A stretch of 64,000 nucleotides of DNA from Candidatus Bathyarchaeia archaeon (lineage in GTDB: Archaea; Thermoproteota; Bathyarchaeia; Bathyarchaeales; Bathycorpusculaceae): the NCBI GenBank assembly GCA_038727135.1, contig JAVYWL010000001.1, positions 1 through 64,000 on the forward strand. The letters are read 5' to 3'. A program made the position numbers and the translations under genes. Position 1 is the stretch's first letter. Each line of letters begins with the position of its first letter. Below are positions 44,856 to 52,417 of this stretch, in pieces. A model generated the notes under the pieces. The model ran no database searches. It was not told the origin of the DNA and worked only from the letters and a program-made list of their open reading frames with translations.

Positions 44856-47648
44856 TTAGTTTGTTGCTGCTTTTTCAGCCTCTTTGTCTGTCGTCTTTTC
44901 CACGCTGAGCGCAGTTTCCATCGCTGTCGCTTTTTCCAATGGTTTGATTGGTGGTTCCTCTTCTTTTAAGTTTAGGGTTCCCCTTATTGTGCCGTCCTCC
45001 ATATACTTTAGCTGGAAGCCTAAGTTTCGCATAAGCTCAATCGCTTTCCGATTTTCTGGAAGCATTATTCCATAAACGCTTTCTAGGCCTCTTTCTCTGC
45101 ATATTTCTATAACGTAGTCCACGAGCTTTGTTCCTAGGCCTAAGCCTTGCCACGGATCCGCCACCAGAAAGGCTATTTCGCCTGTTTTTCCGTCAAGTTC
45201 TATGCTGACTCTGGCTGTTCCGATGATTTTTCTTTTGCCGTTTTCTGTTAGTTCGGCGACTATGGCTATTTCTCGGTCGTAGTCTATGTTGCAGTAGCGG
45301 ACTCTAACCTCGTGGGGCATGTGCTTAAGGGTCTGGAAAAGCTTGTAGCGGATGGACTCTTCTGAGCAGTTTTTGAACATTTCAAGCCACAGTGGCTCGT
45401 CTTCGGGTTTTATGGGTCTCAACAGTACTGTTCTGCCGTCTCGGAGTTTCCATAAGGTTTCATACTTTTTGGGGTAGGGGCTTATAACCAAGTGTTGGTG
45501 GGGTTCCACTTTCCGGAATATGAGTTCTTTGTCTATTATTATGCGAGCGTCTATGGCTATGGCGTCCTCTTCATCCACAAGCAGTGGGTTAATGTCAATC
45601 TCCTTTATTTGTGGAAAATCTATTAGCAGATGCGAGAAGAGAACCATAACCTCTTCTAGGCGTTTAATGTTGGCTGGCGGCATATTCCGGTAACCTTTCA
45701 AAAGCTGGTAAACCTTTGTTTCTTCCATCATGCGCCTAGCCAACGTCTGGTTTAGCGGTGGCAAGCCTATGGAGAAGTCCTTGAAAAGCTCCACGCCTAT
45801 GCCTCCCATTCCAAACATTATGACTGGACCGAAGACTATGTCCTTCTTTGACCCTAAAATGACCTCGTAGCCACGCCTCTTAATCATCGGCTGAACTGTG
45901 ACGCCGATTATTTGGGCTTTCGGATTGTATTTTTTGGCGTTCTTCATTATGGTTCTGAAGGCTTCTCTAACTTCGTCTTCGCTTTTAATGTCGAGGATTA
46001 CTCCGCCAGCATCCGTCTTATGAATTATCTGAGGAGAAAGAACCTTCAAAACCACCGGGTAGCCGATTCGCGAGGCAATGGCAACGGCCTCATCCTCGTC
46101 CTTAGCAATATAGGTCTTCACCACTGGAAAGTTGTAAAACTCCAAAACCTTTTTGGCTTCAAACTCTGTTAGTACTTCACGGTTTTCAAGCGCTGCGCCC
46201 TTCAAAATAGCCAATATAGGAAGCTTAGGCGGAGAAAGGTCGACAGGCAATTCTTCTGGAGTTTCATAGAGCAGTTCGAGGTTTCGCTTGTACTGGTACA
46301 TGTAAAGGTAGGTCCTCACCGCTTGCTCTGGAGTGGAGAAGGTTGGAATCTCGTTGGCGTTAAATATGAAGTTCGCCTCTTCCACAGCTTTCCTACCCAT
46401 AAAAGACGTTAGGATCGTTTTGCCCCGCTGCCCCTTGCTTTTTATAAGCTCCACTATGCTCTTTGCAATTTCAACTGGTTCCGCCACTGCTTGAGCCGTG
46501 TAAATTATGAGGATTCCGTCAACGTTTTCATCATTGAGGCACGCTTCCAAAACGGCTTTGTAGCGGTCGGCTCTGGCGTCGCCTAAAATGTCTATTGGGT
46601 TTCCATGGCTCCAATATGGCGGTAAAATGCTGTTAAGATATTCCATTGTCTGGGGGCTTAACTTTGCGAGTTTGCCGCCCATTCCTATGAGGGCGTCAGT
46701 AGCCATAACGCCCGGACCGCCAGCATTCGTTATTATTGCAAGGTTTGGACCGCGGGGTAGTGGTTGCATGCCTAAAACTTCGGCGCAGTTGAATAGGTCT
46801 GCTATTTCTTCTACGCGAACTATTCCGGCACGTTTGAAGGCGGCATCATAAACGTCGTCCTCGCCTGTAAGCGAACCTGTATGGGAGGCGGCTGCCTTGG
46901 CGCTTTCGCTGTATTTTCCAGCCTTTACAACGATTATTGGTTTTGTTCTGGCGAAGTGTCTTGCGGCACTCATGAACTTGCGGGCGTTTGTTATGCCCTC
47001 AATATACATGAGGATGCTTCGCGTTTTGGGGTCTGTTCCAAAATAGTCTATTAAATCGCCGAAGTCCACGTCTATCATGGAGCCTACGGAGACGAAGTGG
47101 CTGAAGCCAACATTCTCATGAACAGCCCAATCCAATATGGCTGTGCCGAGGGCTCCGCTCTGGCTTATGAAGGCAATGTTGCCAGGTCTTGGCATCTCAT
47201 TAATGAATGTTGCGTTTAAGCGTATGCTTGGACGGATAATTCCCAAACAGTTGGGTCCAATAATGCGTAAATCGTACTTCCGCTTTATCTCAAGAATCTT
47301 ATCCTCGAGGGCTTTGCCTTCTGGACCGGTCTCCTTAAAACCAGCACTTATAATTATTAGCCCTTTTATTCCGGCTCTGCCGCACTGCTCAACCACGTCC
47401 GGAACAGTTTTGGCTGGAGTGGCTATAACCGCCAAATCAACGGTTTTTGGAAGCTGCTCTACGGTTTGGTAGGCTTTAACGCCTAAAATCTCTTTTTTGC
47501 GGATGTTTACTGGGTAAACTTCCCCCTCAAAACCAGACTCAAGAAAGTTTTTCATTAGGGCGTAGCCTACAGAACCTTCCTCGTCGCTGGCGCCAACAAC
47601 AGCCACACTTTTAGGATTAAAAATCTTGTCAAGGTGTAAGGTAACCAA
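44856..47648 (-). CDS. NDP-forming acyl-CoA synthetase-GNAT fusion (Pat/PatZ-like)
   Basis: GPNCLG, SQSGA, SHTGSL, HKTDAGGV; C-terminal WQGLGLG GNAT motif A. Confidence 0.9.
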   Translation of the reverse strand: MVTLHLDKIFNPKSVAVVGASDEEGSVGYALMKNFLESGFEGEVYPVNIRKKEILGVKAYQTVEQLPKTVDLAVIATPAKTVPDVVEQCGRAGIKGLIIISAGFKETGPEGKALEDKILEIKRKYDLRIIGPNCLGIIRPSIRLNATFINEMPRPGNIAFISQSGALGTAILDWAVHENVGFSHFVSVGSMIDVDFGDLIDYFGTDPKTRSILMYIEGITNARKFMSAARHFARTKPIIVVKAGKYSESAKAAASHTGSLTGEDDVYDAAFKRAGIVRVEEIADLFNCAEVLGMQPLPRGPNLAIITNAGGPGVMATDALIGMGGKLAKLSPQTMEYLNSILPPYWSHGNPIDILGDARADRYKAVLEACLNDENVDGILIIYTAQAVAEPVEIAKSIVELIKSKGQRGKTILTSFMGRKAVEEANFIFNANEIPTFSTPEQAVRTYLYMYQYKRNLELLYETPEELPVDLSPPKLPILAILKGAALENREVLTEFEAKKVLEFYNFPVVKTYIAKDEDEAVAIASRIGYPVVLKVLSPQIIHKTDAGGVILDIKSEDEVREAFRTIMKNAKKYNPKAQIIGVTVQPMIKRRGYEVILGSKKDIVFGPVIMFGMGGIGVELFKDFSIGLPPLNQTLARRMMEETKVYQLLKGYRNMPPANIKRLEEVMVLFSHLLIDFPQIKEIDINPLLVDEEDAIAIDARIIIDKELIFRKVEPHQHLVISPYPKKYETLWKLRDGRTVLLRPIKPEDEPLWLEMFKNCSEESIRYKLFQTLKHMPHEVRVRYCNIDYDREIAIVAELTENGKRKIIGTARVSIELDGKTGEIAFLVADPWQGLGLGTKLVDYVIEICRERGLESVYGIMLPENRKAIELMRNLGFQLKYMEDGTIRGTLNLKEEEPPIKPLEKATAMETALSVEKTTDKEAEKAATN

Positions 47649-47707
47649 GCCATAGCACCAGCACCATGAAAATTCGGCGGCGAAGATTAAAAGTTTACCT
47701 AAAACTA

Positions 47708-47764
47708 AACCGCATTTTCAAAGTTGATTAAACTTATAACTTTAAAATCAGCCTAGTGTTTGAT
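47708..47764 (+). repeat. 57-bp direct repeat A, copy 1 (promoter-like)
   Basis: 54/57 identical to 49309-49365; contains TTATAA. Confidence 0.9.
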
Positions 47765-47969
47765 AGAGAAAGGGATGATTGTTGTGATGGATAAGGTGAA
47801 GTTTAGATTCGCATTCATCGGCATAGCCCTATTCACACTTGCAGGCTGGCTTATAGGAGCACTTATTGAGCATACGCCTGGTCCCGGAGGCTTTCAAGCA
47901 ATAACCGCCTTAATTGGCGCCACTATAGCGGTCGGCATGCTGGCATTAGGAGAAGCACTAAAAAGCTGA
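47760..47969 (+). CDS. Small 2-TM membrane protein
   Basis: Two hydrophobic helices; start uncertain (47760, 47775 or 47787). Confidence 0.6.
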   Translation: MIEKGMIVVMDKVKFRFAFIGIALFTLAGWLIGALIEHTPGPGGFQAITALIGATIAVGMLALGEALKS

Positions 47970-47995
47970 AAGGGTAAGAAAAATTTGCGATTATA

Positions 47996-48098
47996 ATAGA
48001 AACTTTAATCAGTGAAGAGACTCTATTGTTTGCTAAATACCTACCTACGCAACAAGAAAGACTCATGGAAACCAAGACTCATACAACTAACAAACTAA
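47996..48098 (+). pseudogene. Probable cas1 (solo/casposase-like) 3' remnant 1
   Basis: IETLISEETLLFAKYL[CCTA dup]RNKKDSWKPR; paralogous to the remnant at 49060. Confidence 0.55.
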
Positions 48099-48153
48099 AA
48101 TCCATTTTTCTCTATCTTTGAAAATTCAACGTTGGGTTGGGATTAAATTTTAC

Positions 48154-48639
48154 CTATGCTTCTTCCTGTAATTTATTTCCACAATATGGACAAAAGTCAA
48201 ATGTTCTTGAAATTTCCCTTCTGCACTTAGGACATGTTGTTGGTTTTAATTCGTAACCACATTTGGGGCAAACTTCAAAGTCTTCTTCTAATTCCTCACC
48301 GCATTCTGGACATTCTAAAAATCGTATTTCCTTGTGTTCTTTTATTACGGGTTTTACTTGCGCTTTAGCACGCATTAAAATCTTGTGCGCCCGTATGAGC
48401 TTATTAACATTCTTCCCATCTTCATAGACCCAATATGCTATTGCAAAACCGGACAAACCTAGCAAAATAACATAGATGCCTAACACTTTAAGAATATTAA
48501 AATCCGGTGAGGATAAACCAGCAAGTGGAAGTAATCTAAAAGCGTCAGTTAAATAATCTGCTGTCCTAAAAAGCTCATAGGCTATATAAAAGCACAAAAT
48601 AAAATTAATGAACAGAAAAAGCACAACTAATATCCTCAT
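48154..48639 (-). CDS. Membrane protein with double zinc ribbon
   Basis: Two TM helices, then CPEC, CPKC, CPKC, CPYC. Confidence 0.8.
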   Translation of the reverse strand: MRILVVLFLFINFILCFYIAYELFRTADYLTDAFRLLPLAGLSSPDFNILKVLGIYVILLGLSGFAIAYWVYEDGKNVNKLIRAHKILMRAKAQVKPVIKEHKEIRFLECPECGEELEEDFEVCPKCGYELKPTTCPKCRREISRTFDFCPYCGNKLQEEA

Positions 48640-48763
48640 AATGCTTCATCTCTACAATTTAATTTATTTGGCTCAAAATTAAAAATTTTTGCAAATTTTC
48701 GGCGTATTGAAGTTTATTTTGGGCTAAAAATTAATCCCAAACCCAAACACCCTCTCAAAGGGG

Positions 48764-48821
48764 GAGAGAGGGACAGACGGACAGACAGAGACAGACACAC
48801 AGACAAACAGACAGAAACACA
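48764..48821. repeat. GACA/CAGA low-complexity tract
   Basis: gacagacggacagacagagacagacacacagacaaacagacagaaacac. Confidence 0.8.
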
Positions 48822-49059
48822 AGCATTAAACTCAAGGAAAAAGGAGAATAGGCTATTTGGAAATCATTCCGTAAACTAATGTTGCGACTCCTATAAGTAC
48901 TAATACGGTACCAACTAATGTTAAATTAACCCGTAAGTAGCTAAAAATTGCGGTTGGTTGCCAAGCGGTAAACTTTCAGCAACCTTTGGAAGTACTACCA
49001 AATCAAAGCAAAAGAACACCATGCCTATTAAAAGGCAAATGATACCAACAAAACATACA

Positions 49060-49308
49060 TTACGTTTCAAATTCATCACCTTTCAAACTTAAATTTACTG
49101 TTCTAGGTTTCCATATTTGCTTTTCGTTTCTCAGGTATTTGGCTAAAAGGTAAGCTTCCTCGTTAATGAGAGTTCCAACTGTTTGGCTTTTCCCATGCTT
49201 AATTCTTGGAATGCCAACTTTAGCTTCAAACAGTCGGTTAAGCCTTTCAACCAATTCCCTAGTCTTTTCACGGTTTAAAACTTGTCTTTTCCTAAACGGT
49301 TAGAGCTG
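49060..49308 (-). pseudogene. Probable cas1 (solo/casposase-like) 3' remnant 2
   Basis: KRQVLNREKTRELVERLNRLFEAKVGIPRIKHGKSQTVGTLINEEAYLLAKYLRNEKQIWKPR resembles, from memory, the C-terminus of bathyarchaeal solo Cas1; truncated at repeat A. Confidence 0.6.
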
Positions 49309-49365
49309 AACCGCATCTTCAAAGTTGATTAAACTTATAACTTTAAAATCAGCTTAGTGTTTAAT
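49309..49365 (+). repeat. 57-bp direct repeat A, copy 2
   Basis: 54/57 identical to 47708-47764. Confidence 0.9.
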
Positions 49366-49449
49366 GTTTATGTGTGACTGCTTGTGTGTCTGTGACAAGG
49401 TAAAGTGCAGGTAACGGGTGGGTTTGGGGATTAAATTTTTAATCTCATA

Positions 49450-49854
49450 TCAGATACTATGTTTAGATTCGGCACTGAGAAATGCCAATATGGTACTTGT
49501 TACGGGCAATATGAACCCGACTGGTACCACAGGGGCTGTTGCGAGCTCAGGTTTAATTTTGCATAAAATAACAGGTAGCCCCAAAAATCCTCCAGTTAAT
49601 GCTCCCGCAGATACTAGCACTCCCCCCAACCTTGACTTTTGCAGCAAGACGAGAGTACCTCCAATAGTCATGAGTGATCCTCCTATATAGAGGAGAGGGT
49701 GTAAAAGAAAATATGCATAGTTTGTTGCATGCAAAGTTAAAACTCCGCTCGCAATTCCTAGCATAGCTGAAACCCAACGATAAAGGGTTTTTCTTTCCAC
49801 ATTTCTACGGTTAGTCTCTATTTTTTCTGGCGTATTCCATCCAGACAAGCTCAA
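49450..49854 (-). CDS. Hypothetical 4-TM membrane protein
   Basis: Gly-rich hydrophobic helices; lies between motif B copies. Confidence 0.6.
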   Translation of the reverse strand: MSLSGWNTPEKIETNRRNVERKTLYRWVSAMLGIASGVLTLHATNYAYFLLHPLLYIGGSLMTIGGTLVLLQKSRLGGVLVSAGALTGGFLGLPVILCKIKPELATAPVVPVGFILPVTSTILAFLSAESKHSI

Positions 49855-50107
49855 AATCTCCAGAATAAACTGTGGAATCCATCTATTATTCCTTTCGAAT
49901 TTATATGCGCAGCTAAAAATTTGATGCGAAAGGGAAAAAGGTGAGGTTGGGTTTGGGGATTAAATTTTTATGCAATAGCATTATAGCTTAACACGTGATG
50001 CACAAAGAACTTTAGTGTAAGAAAATCTAGAGGGGAGGGGATAGTCACTTTAGGCTGTTCTTCAAAGCCATTTTCGCAGTTGAAAATCTATAGAGGACTA
50101 GCGGCTA

Positions 50108-50131
50108 TTGGCTTTGGAAAAAGCCAAAAAA
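50108..50131 (-). terminator. Hairpin/T-tract downstream of sudA
   Basis: TTGGCTTT-GGAA-AAAGCCAA; T-rich on the minus strand. Confidence 0.4.
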
Positions 50132-50181
50132 TGTATAGAGGGGTATCCAATTTATGGTTTGGCGGAAGCCTAAATTTGACT

Positions 50182-52417
<2,236 letters not shown>

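Follow-up and report, generated by a model that had tools for sequence, protein, structure and literature searches.

Probable decayed landing pad of PolB-less Cas1 mini-casposons between the Pat-like and SudA/GltD-like genes of a hot-spring Bathyarchaeia archaeon

The spacer between the genes for a Pat-like and a SudA/GltD-like protein is probably (about 0.75) a landing pad of PolB-less Cas1 mini-casposons. In the window, which is the whole stretch of 64,000 nt analysed here, this spacer would hold stacked, decayed insertions at a self-regenerating target. The pieces in the spacer are homologous to intact elements, one of these elements (e802) has both a target duplication (TSD) and an empty site, the locus is variable, and its alleles coexist. 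A sequence-only reading had proposed stacked one-gene units mobilised by a solo Cas1, similar to an integron or a CRISPR array. One part of it stood: the repeated motif is the end of a Cas1 transposon with its duplicated target, and the insertions are stacked. The gene-by-gene array was not supported. On the best reading, the window contains worn ends and gene stubs and not a working gene-cassette system.

Intact elements of the family

The genome that contains the window has an intact 4.4-kb element, e802 (C1:802016-806441). The element has 82-bp TIRs with 97.6% identity and a gene for a Cas1 of 345 aa, and it is flanked by the perfect direct 14-bp target duplication GGTTAAATTTTAAG (14/14). 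The congener G003 has a clean empty site with one copy of the 14-mer and 94% flank identity, which proves that the parent element has transposed. An empty site was also sought for a second intact element, eC3; this gave no result because its flanks are not conserved in congeners.

The genome has three full-length solo cas1 genes (PF01867, 153-161 bits each). Residues E165, H228, D240 and E243 were invariant in nine aligned sequences, and the conserved residues align to the IEGKAS, GFxH and DxxE motifs of 4n06 and 6opm. The NCBIfam cas1 model covers residues 12-336 of the 345-aa protein, and none of the subtype-specific NCBIfam cas1 models reached its cut-off. The best solved relative was the CRISPR Cas1 of A. 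fulgidus (4n06; 69.5 bits, 2.8e-18), against 47.8 bits and 1.1e-11 for the M. mazei casposase (6opm). CRISPR-like spaced repeats were found nowhere in the genome, Pfam detected no cas genes among the neighbours of the three cas1 genes, and the IMG/VR viral contigs contained no relative of this Cas1.

Relatives were collected from Bathyarchaeia genomes and metagenomes. Self-matches of at least 99.9% and ORFs overlapped over more than 50% by a longer ORF were left out. The family was found in 19 of the 301 Bathyarchaeia genomes searched and in more than 480 metagenome contigs, the hosts being Bathyarchaeia MAGs and the runs coming from hot springs. Both tips and an exact direct repeat of at least 9 nt were recognised at 27 of 100 related loci; the other 73 had no tip pair, many of them being contigs too short to hold an element. 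Including e802, there were 28 delimited elements, with sizes of 1.5-7.7 kb. The direct repeats were 13-14 nt long at 18 of the 27 loci, and the flanks average 85% A+T. The TIR tips of the family are (CCCAAA)n, and the target is 13-14 bp, AT-rich, nearly palindromic and intergenic. Other TIRs were 135 nt (L051, 100% identity), 82 nt (L056, 100%) and 135 nt (L050, 94%) long. A G-rich, tip-like 'leader' in the native target, visible as such a run to the left of the left duplication, was seen in two of eight inspected intact elements and was rejected as a general rule.

PolB was absent from all 28 elements. Their three largest ORFs encode an R-M methylase (the largest, 541 aa), a NosD beta-helix protein and a radical SAM protein, and Pfam found no polymerase among the genes of e802 and eC3. 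A small gene with a product of ~150 aa, called AEP-like here from sub-threshold Pfam matches only, was present in 26 of the 28. This protein had no match in PHROGs or in the PDB profile search, nor when the Pfam AEP-like model was run against its own genome, and hhalign aligned its profile weakly (21% probability) with a 173-aa protein of eC3. The cluster B protein belongs to no Pfam family. Non-autonomous, MITE-like derivatives exist elsewhere, namely L055 (1.5 kb, broken cas1, 13-nt TSD) and a ~430-bp unit in L046.

Remnants between the Pat-like and SudA-like genes

The features of the interval and its two anchors are as follows.

44856..47648, minus strand: Pat-like protein (left anchor), ORF of 930 aa with Pfam CoA-binding, ATP-grasp and GNAT domains
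47700..47764, plus strand: pat/tm69 intergenic segment, copy 1, 65 nt, genus-conserved host DNA
47760..47969, plus strand: tm69, small membrane-protein ORF, kept beside pat in congeners
47980..48095, plus strand: cas1 remnant 1, short and frameshifted (E 0.002-0.016 against remnant 2 and against the e802 cas1)
48134..48153, plus strand: right-type end A, tip GGGTTGGG (48134-48141) and AT-rich target ATTAAATTTTAC
48154..48639, minus strand: znr161, 161 aa, C-terminal double zinc ribbon and TM segments (Pfam Zn_Ribbon_1 4.9e-13, DZR 1.3e-12)
48725..48735, no strand: AT-rich flank TAAAAATTAAT left of element B
48736..48825, plus strand: left TIR of element B, tip CCCAAACCCAAAC followed by an ACAGAC-rich part; low-complexity repeats
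48921..49079, minus strand: tm52, truncated small membrane ORF downstream of cas1 (73 aa in G010)
49063..49299, minus strand: cas1 remnant 2, last 79 codons, homologous to the full-length cas1 at C1:802103-803140
49301..49365, plus strand: pat/tm69 intergenic segment, copy 2, 65 nt, 91% identical to copy 1
49366..49429, plus strand: partial right TIR of the G004/L040-type subfamily, tip TGGGTTTGGGG at 49419-49429
49430..49443, no strand: AT-rich target ATTAAATTTTTAAT at end B, fitting the target consensus of 27 elements
49444..49947, minus strand: tm134 block, a discrete block of a membrane ORF (49450-49854, 134 aa) and its upstream region
49948..49970, plus strand: right-type end C, tip TGGGTTTGGGG and target ATTAAATTTTTA
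50182..51609, minus strand: SudA/GltD-like protein (right anchor), 475 aa, Pfam Fer4_20 and Pyr_redox_2

The Pat-SudA distance is ~80-170 bp in three other genera (G017, G018, G036). Within the genus, the interval is different in nearly every genome. The invariant gene content that would have spoken against the sequence-only reading was not seen among the relatives, in which this content varies. The spacer in this genus is a variable insertion hotspot between two housekeeping genes. The 65-nt pat/tm69 segment is single-copy in G003, G004, G005, G007, G009, G010 and G012; its second copy in the window is trapped within element B, and the duplication was found in this genome only. Homology of tm69 extends to 47973-48000 in G003, G005, G007, G010 and G012. 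An Rfam search of 47600-50250 gave no match.

Within the window, cas1 is present as 3' stubs only, and both stubs proposed earlier are genuine. Compared with the 3' end of the cas1 at C1:802103-803140, remnant 2 shows 77% identity over 65 aa and 84% over 211 nt, the nucleotide match to this e802 gene spanning 49103-49312. The NCBIfam cas1 model aligns to the remnant at model positions 271-324 of 327 (E 0.016). Remnant 1 is short. It starts at codons K-I-C-D (Cas1 motif VCDxMELYRY) and continues, after an internal deletion and a frameshift, with the final ~33 codons. It lies at the cas1 junction of the congeners, which is common to G007, G010 and G005 and carries longer cas1 stubs there. Downstream of both stubs, the TIR, tip and AT-rich flank follow in the order of an intact element; the like orientation of the motif had been noted before.

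This motif, motif B, consists of the conserved TIR tip (GGGTTTGGGG) and, after it, the AT-rich target of the element (consensus GATTAAATTTTAAT); four copies lie within 47.7-50.2 kb. The direct repeat, inverted copies, half-sites and ORFs described by the sequence-only reading were all recovered in place. The perfect 23-nt direct repeat TGGGTTTGGGGATTAAATTTTTA is located at 49419-49441 and 49948-49970, the inverted copies at 48134-48152 and 48725-48743 (19 nt, 89% complementary), and the half-sites at 48121 and 49914. The stop codons of znr161 and tm134 are 0 and 8 nt from a motif copy, within the 10 bp claimed. With up to three mismatches, the 22-mer had 2 matches in the window against 0.01 expected (100 shuffles). 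The 13-mer core of the motif occurs three times in the 1.55-Mb genome, always in this interval. Across the genus, matches with up to three mismatches were present in 6 of 14 genomes, with no more than five per genome, and most of them are located at casposon TIRs. The results showed that motif B is not a generic repeat and is linked to solo cas1, as had been suggested.

A nature of motif B unlinked to transposition, either as a generic promoter or terminator element of archaea or as what is left of a degraded CRISPR-cas locus, is hardly credible. The motif is rare in the genome, is found at TIR ends and runs on into 80-90 nt of TIR homology; the genome is without a spaced-repeat array, and the e802 empty site proves that the parent element transposed. 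Its AT-rich half does sit at gene ends and resembles a TATA box or a T-tract, and cas1 stubs are close by. However, a promoter and terminator consensus scan, which was of bacterial type and did not model archaeal signals, placed nothing on the motif.

Of the TIRs, the window retains a good left one and part of a right one; two further ends are bare tips. Positions 48733-48821 are 92-94% identical to both e802 TIRs, and 49366-49429 shares 81-84% identity with G004 and 80% with the left TIR of the intact element L040. End A is identical in G007:C27. End C and its right flank are kept in G003, G004, G007, G009 and G010, and end C is probably the oldest piece of the interval. In G007:C5, a C3-type casposon end of a different subfamily abuts the very same target. 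The sequence immediately inside end C matches no known TIR, which was counted against decay. The 23-nt repeat consists of 11 nt of tip and 12 nt of target; two right ends of the same family at a re-used target would give such a repeat as the expected product.

No unit within the window has tips of both types together with a direct duplication, and a TSD of ~14-15 bp accompanies none of them. These units are therefore not MITE-like non-autonomous derivatives with both TIR ends and a direct TSD. The TIRs of element B come from different subfamilies, and its flanks are inverted and not a direct duplication, so B would have to be a chimera of two events. The inverted flanks were also counted against decay.

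The GGGTTT side of the tip faces the interior of the element in intact copies. Therefore znr161, which has a right tip on one side and a left tip on the other, both facing away from the gene, is outside both neighbouring ends. The tm134 gene has right-type ends on both sides. This does not agree with single genes as non-autonomous units bracketed by their own ends. The tm134 protein has no Pfam family, and its gene is present in 2 of 201 genomes of the order. In G002, the tm134 block is at another locus without the motif, and it is also motif-free in G109; the znr161 homologue of G207 (72% identical) has no tips. With no motif travelling with either gene, integron-like cassettes were not supported. 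The block boundaries in G002 coincide exactly with the starts of motif copies in the window's genome, which would be a coincidence under simple decay and was counted against it. No casposon gene stubs were found inside the tm134 and znr161 blocks, another point counted in this way.

We believe that at least three or four insertions have left their decayed remains in the window. Insertion A would comprise cas1 stub 1 and end A; B-left, the e802-type left TIR, tm52 and cas1 stub 2; B-right, the G004/L040-type right TIR and end B; and C, the solo tip and target. Integration by Cas1 would duplicate the target and leave it intact on both sides of the element, so new copies may land there again, sometimes in tandem. 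Such tandem insertion at a re-used target was reported for M. mazei and Nitrosopumilus casposons (PMC6563490, PMC9939771). Later deletions and recombination would strip left ends and interiors, and the survivors would be right-hand tips, stubs from the 3' end of cas1 and small accessory genes. These losses may be driven by recombination between cas1 copies, by an unstable palindromic junction of tip, target and tip, or by exchange between strains. We infer the order of events and the deletion mechanisms from these remains. The genes znr161 and tm134 would be former cargo, and the units in the window are most likely immobile now.

Alleles and alternative readings

Metagenome contigs from four runs of four studies carried several Pat-SudA alleles, and several structural alleles coexist in hot-spring metagenomes. 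In run X1, an allele skipping 48733-49958 (depth 44) was found alongside the filled form (depth 45-64). The short allele bears nine extra letters (TACGGGTTT) and corresponds cleanly to neither an empty site nor a deletion; the extra letters were counted against decay. An excision footprint was rejected as their source, since M. mazei excision is reported to leave one clean target (PMC10359463).

This allele bears on the proposal that 48733-49958 (1,226 bp) is a still-mobile composite non-autonomous element with left tip B and right tip C, mobilised in trans. The indel against G007:C27, G009:C6 and the X1 contig runs from tip to tip within 3 nt, and the left TIR is 92-94% identical to that of e802, which has an intact Cas1 in the genome. 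However, the flanks are not a direct duplication, the allele lacking the segment carries TACGGGTTT in place of the single target that precise excision leaves in M. mazei (PMC10359463), tip C has no recognisable subterminal TIR, and the genome has no second copy. We consider such an element very unlikely.

True tandem junctions (tip, target, tip) were found in L046 and L057. The hairpin energy of the tandem junction is modestly unusual (z -2.07), and this modest value was counted against decay. In L047 and L051, 3' cas1 stubs lie in blocks between an intact element and a solo tip of the same orientation. Downstream of one common junction of tm69 and cas1, five alleles differ in cas1 subtype, which fits a turnover in which cas1 copies recombine after tandem insertion. 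Solo tips of 11-13 nt persist in the same orientation at several loci, and this persistence was counted against decay too. An inversion between the cas1 stubs as the origin of the present order was dropped because G007:C27 and G009 have the order stub 1, end A, znr161 without stub 2. An opposite-strand joint of 48725 and 49445 in runs X2 and X3 was first taken for an inverted element B; an intact right TIR beside the tm134 block, mapping onto the window's left TIR, explains the joint better.

The pattern of tip and target in the same orientation occurs in the window, in G004, in the G007/G009 allele and in L046, L047 and L051. It raises the question of an array built by Cas1. The casposase would repeatedly insert pieces of DNA as long as a gene at the target beside a resident tip, whether they carry one TIR end or no TIR end at all. 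Same-orientation repeats of tip and target would then separate single genes mobilised in trans by intact Cas1 copies. A perfect 23-nt direct repeat on both sides of the tm134 block, and the occurrence of this block elsewhere with boundaries matching the repeats, agree with this proposal. So do the G007:C27/G009 allele, in which the znr161 block lies between right-type copies of tip and target, the 82-aa ORF block between two right-type ends in G004, and a tip-free 2-kb stretch between an R tip and an L tip with direct TAAAATTTAAT flanks in L046. Other casposases are also reported to take varied DNA ends in vitro (PMC7786333, PMC6977970). However, intact elements duplicate 13-14 nt and not 23, and a second right end supplies the other 11 nt as its tip. 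In G002, G109 and G207, the genes are free of the motif. The comparable blocks of L047 and L051 hold cas1 stubs, so those blocks are decayed elements. A fresh insertion of such a unit was seen at no other target, and the ends in the window are mixed in polarity and subfamily. The motif repeats are spaced at 529-1288 nt with mixed polarity, which is unlike a CRISPR array of regular repeats with 25-50-nt spacers. An array of this kind is unlikely here, and decayed insertions at a landing pad remain our preferred reading.

Relation to known systems

The family has a Cas1 with the catalytic residues, TIRs, a ~14-bp TSD and no CRISPR link, as casposons do; the PolB of casposons is missing. It fits the little-described 'family 5' PolB-less casposases (PMC9755687), as judged from the published description only. 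Family 5 is described from hot-spring archaea as solo Cas1 proteins with conserved catalytic residues on six contigs. The shared points are the missing C-terminal HTH, which the Cas1 studied here also lacks, the absence of PolB from most members, TIRs in some, and variable cargo. Family 5 Cas1 is described as close to subtype I-A Cas1, and the Cas1 studied here may be as well. The available text of PMC9755687 differs in containing no target or TSD analysis, TIR-tip description, conserved accessory genes, hotspots or remnants. A search of the available literature found no description of (CCCAAA)n-tipped, AEP-carrying, PolB-less casposons or of their target; the supplements of PMC9755687 may hold the same family.

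Families 1-4 (for example AciBoo-C1, MetMaz-C1 and NitNF5-C1/C2) share the Cas1 integrase, TIRs, a 14-15-bp TSD and a strong target preference. They are reported to be 8-20 kb with PolB invariably present (PMC6452270), whereas the elements here are 1.5-7.7 kb and have an AEP-like gene in place of PolB. Their targets are mostly the ends of tRNA or ef-2 genes, whereas an AT-rich intergenic near-palindrome is used here. Prim-Pols linked to Cas1-Cas2 likewise tie an AEP-superfamily protein genetically to a Cas1 integrase. Those are large, biochemically proven proteins of bacterial CRISPR adaptation operons according to PMC8211822; here, a ~150-aa AEP-like protein with sub-threshold Pfam matches is found in a transposon without Cas2. 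The window also resembles an integron in that small unrelated genes are stacked at one site near recombinase-related sequence. However, it has no intact integrase on site and no site travelling with each gene, the polarity of genes and repeats is mixed, and the repeats are transposon ends.

The CRISPR adaptation module is proposed to derive from casposons, and the published scenario needs a casposon without polymerase that was immobilised and left TIR- or target-derived repeats (PMC6452270). The 23-nt repeats of TIR tip and target, together with gene-sized DNA, could be a natural intermediate between transposon and CRISPR array, which we regard as quite unlikely. In that case, a solo Cas1 may keep adding DNA, one-ended or end-less pieces included, at the target beside a resident end; every round would duplicate the target, and TIR tip and TSD would act as the 'repeat'. 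The mini-casposon family, archaeal and widespread, is already PolB-less, and its Cas1 scores nearer to a CRISPR Cas1 than to the solved casposase. It leaves direct 23-nt repeats of tip plus target at a re-used site, and the target is simple and readable. One small enzyme and a set of short DNA substrates would allow direct tests of how targets are chosen, which ends are required and what becomes of tandem insertions. The AEP-like gene, if confirmed, would link a primase-polymerase to a transposon Cas1. The cas1 genes of this family are now annotated as 'CRISPR-associated', although no CRISPR is present.

Mosaic DNA and its intact relatives

The Pat-like and SudA-like genes border 2.5 kb of mosaic DNA. 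A search for the 23-nt direct repeat TGGGTTTGGGGATTAAATTTTTA gave two perfect matches (0.01 expected), and variant copies of this motif (motif B) were found nearby.

Features of the Pat-SudA interval in the window
44856-47648, minus: Pat-like gene (Pfam), one border
47980-48095, plus: short, frameshifted cas1 3' stub
48134-48153: variant motif copy, same orientation as the 23-nt repeat
48154-48639, minus: znr161, 161-aa membrane protein with a double zinc ribbon
48725-48748: variant motif copy, inverted
49063-49299, minus: cas1 3' stub, sharing 77% identity (65 aa) with a full cas1 at another genomic locus
49419-49441: 23-nt repeat, first copy
49450-49854, minus: tm134, 134-aa membrane protein of no known family
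49948-49970: 23-nt repeat, second copy
50182-51609, minus: SudA-like gene (Pfam), other border

The stops of znr161 and tm134 each lie within 8 nt of a motif copy. Just past the sudA stop, positions 50083-50180 hold a dispersed repeat of about 100 nt; matches of 69-94% occur elsewhere in the genome, at seven or more sites, and in most congeners. Three 16-mers resembling GAAAATCTAGAGGGGA lie within the repeat, and an Rfam search of it matched no family.

The genome (G000; 1.55 Mb, 7 contigs) encodes three full-length cas1 genes, and a search across it for CRISPR-like spaced repeats found none. The intact, PolB-less element e802 (C1:802016-806441; L005 8017-12442) carries cas1 in 4,426 bp and is located between an RNA polymerase subunit (rpoD-like) gene and a proteasome alpha gene. 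The TIRs of e802, 82 nt long and 97.6% identical, begin with CCCAAACCCAAACCCAAACACCCTCTC, followed by an ACAGAC-rich stretch. A perfect 14-nt direct repeat, GGTTAAATTTTAAG, flanks the element as a TSD. The congener G003 has a clean empty site, in which both flanks (94% identity) are joined over one copy of the 14-mer. In G009 and G006, a different 1.2-kb insert occupies this spacer. Because window positions 48733-48821 match the e802 TIRs (92-94% identity) and 49103-49312 match the 3' end of its cas1 (84%), motif B is the outermost TIR tip (GGGTTTGGGG) plus an AT-rich target. The G-rich side of each tip faces the element interior.

The second intact element, eC3 (C3:85917-92524; L006 3918-10525), is 6.6 kb long. 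Its TIR differs from that of e802 and starts with CTTTTTCTCTC, and its 13-nt duplication, ATAAACTTTTAAT, is similar to that of e802. Its genes include those for an N6/N4 DNA methylase and an EVE/NucS-like protein of 516 aa, probably restriction-modification cargo. Among the other elements, some encode a type IIG-like methylase, and others a Schlafen AlbA_2 or a radical SAM protein. Another e802-type right-end remnant (start of a zf-AN1 gene, TIR, and tip next to TTAAAATTTCAAT) lies at C2:4349-4675, and a lone left-type tip lies 6 kb from it at C2:10941-10963. The protein P0001, a Cas1 sharing 99% identity with the e802 protein, is encoded on a contig of 4,385 bp, close to the length of the element itself; this could be a repeat-collapsed or free copy.

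A family of PolB-less elements in Bathyarchaeia

Relatives are encoded on more than 480 metagenome contigs. The survey comprised 100 related loci, 20 of them in species genomes and 80 on JGI metagenome contigs. In 27, cas1 lies between two (CCCAAA)n tips and there is an exact direct repeat of at least 9 nt. The repeat was 13-14 nt in 18 of these 27; in longer repeats, some G or C letters also belong to the tips. The targets give the consensus GATTAAATTTTAAT, with flanks averaging 85% A+T. With e802, this gave 28 delimited elements of 1.5-7.7 kb (median 5.3 kb). Their largest ORF is 541 aa, and the three largest encode an R-M methylase, a NosD-type beta-helix protein and a radical SAM protein. 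Occurrence is patchy: of the Bathyarchaeia sampled, 19 of 301 genomes and 15 of 107 genera have the family, at no more than three copies per genome. Cas1 residues E165, H228, D240 and E243 were kept in all nine aligned sequences, and the family Cas1 scored higher against the A. fulgidus CRISPR Cas1 (4n06) than against the M. mazei casposase (6opm).

A protein of about 150 aa is encoded by 26 of the 28 elements, and a second small protein of no family by 24. Examples of the former are found at L051 6914-7438, L047 7877-8317 and, frameshifted within e802, C1:804896-805323. It shows an invariant D-x-D together with an S-S-x3-H motif, and has 512 representatives in a library of 1.84 billion proteins. 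The Pfam family 'AEP-like' (PF24387) matched 18 of 35 members at E<=0.01 (best 1.8e-5), every match falling below the curated cut-off; PDB, PHROGs and an own-genome scan gave no match. As a lead rather than a proof, this protein may replace PolB as a primase-polymerase. No linkage of an AEP-like gene to the Cas1 of a transposon turned up in the papers searched; the nearest case described is that of CRISPR-associated primase-polymerases (PMC8211822).

Casposons are described as invariably carrying a DNA polymerase (PMC6452270), whereas no family B polymerase was found in the 28 elements. Families 1-4, with tandem insertions and tRNA or ef-2 targets, have been described (PMC9939771, PMC6563490). 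A 'family 5' has been proposed for casposases of hot-spring archaea that mostly lack PolB and fall near subtype I-A; some of its contigs have TIRs, and the available text of that source gives no target, TSD or core-gene analysis (PMC9755687). Compared by description only, our elements fit it. Our characterization of the family covers its tips and target, the TSD, the core genes, an empty site, and a hotspot with coexisting alleles.

Probable turnover of the interval in related genomes

Outside the genus, three genomes (G017, G018, G036) have 80-170 bp between Pat and SudA; in the remaining other genera they are non-adjacent or on separate contigs. Within the genus, the interval content varies almost genome by genome.

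Interval content by genome
G003: HNH-like ORF
G004: truncated e802-like element joined directly to the 65-nt segment next to pat; beyond it, two right-type ends enclosing an 82-aa ORF
G007:C5: 3.4-kb fragment of the other (C3/C5) subfamily
G007:C27 and G009:C6: match to G000 up to 48732, resuming at 49959, with TACGGGTTT between
G010: tm69 (small membrane ORF next to pat), cas1 stub of about 100 codons, 73-aa ORF

The right end of the G007:C5 fragment abuts the exact site of window end C (right-type tip plus target at 49948), where ATTAAATTTTTA meets TGCAATAGC. End C would be the oldest piece of the interval, because it is conserved with its right flank in G003, G004, G007, G009 and G010. Five alleles have one junction in common, which joins the tm69 stop to cas1 codons (K)VCD, and the cas1 stubs downstream are of different subtypes. 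We read this combination as turnover, in which a new copy would insert in tandem once the target has been regenerated, and recombination of its cas1 with the resident stub would remove the DNA between them. Several alleles coexist in contigs of four hot-spring runs from four studies; excision cannot be seen in contigs. In run X1, the form skipping 48733-49958 had a depth of 44 versus 45-64 for the filled form. A G003-like form reached 212-278.

Gene cassettes or decayed insertions

The sequence-only reading had proposed stacked one-gene cassettes mobilised by a solo Cas1. All the sequence features it listed are present in the interval, and stacked insertions of Cas1 transposons are supported; the cassette array falls short. 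The polarity of the TIRs places znr161 outside the ends on either side of it, and tm134 has a right-type end on each side. Element B (48736-49429) joins an e802-type left TIR to a G004/L040-type right TIR, has inverted flanks, and traps a second copy of the host 65-nt segment, a duplication found only in G000. The 23-nt repeat consists of an 11-nt tip and a 12-nt target, exactly the product expected if two right ends of one family had come to lie at a re-used target. A znr161 homologue (72% identical) in another family has no tips. Besides G002, where it lies at a different locus without the motif, tm134 occurs in 2 of 201 genomes of the order. True tandem junctions are present in L046 and L057. 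In L047 and L051, the blocks between a same-orientation solo tip and intact elements are decayed elements, since they hold cas1 stubs. Overall, we consider the locus a hotspot of stacked, decayed PolB-less mini-casposons.

A 'proto-array' built by Cas1 stays alive as a minority reading, because the tm134 and znr161 blocks have no casposon stub inside, the tm134 block copy in G002 stops exactly at the motif boundaries, short solo tips are kept in one orientation at several loci, and L046 has a tip-less 2-kb stretch between a right and a left tip, flanked by direct TAAAATTTAAT. L046 6085-13600 also contains a tandem junction of solo tip, TAAAGTTTTAT and full element, and a mini-element of about 430 bp with both tips and one 75-aa ORF. 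In G002:C115 (L031), an insert of about 3 kb, encoding three large secreted or membrane proteins, interrupts the tm134 homologue just upstream of its start. The flanks of this block map to G000 C3:130.2-130.4 kb in rearranged order.
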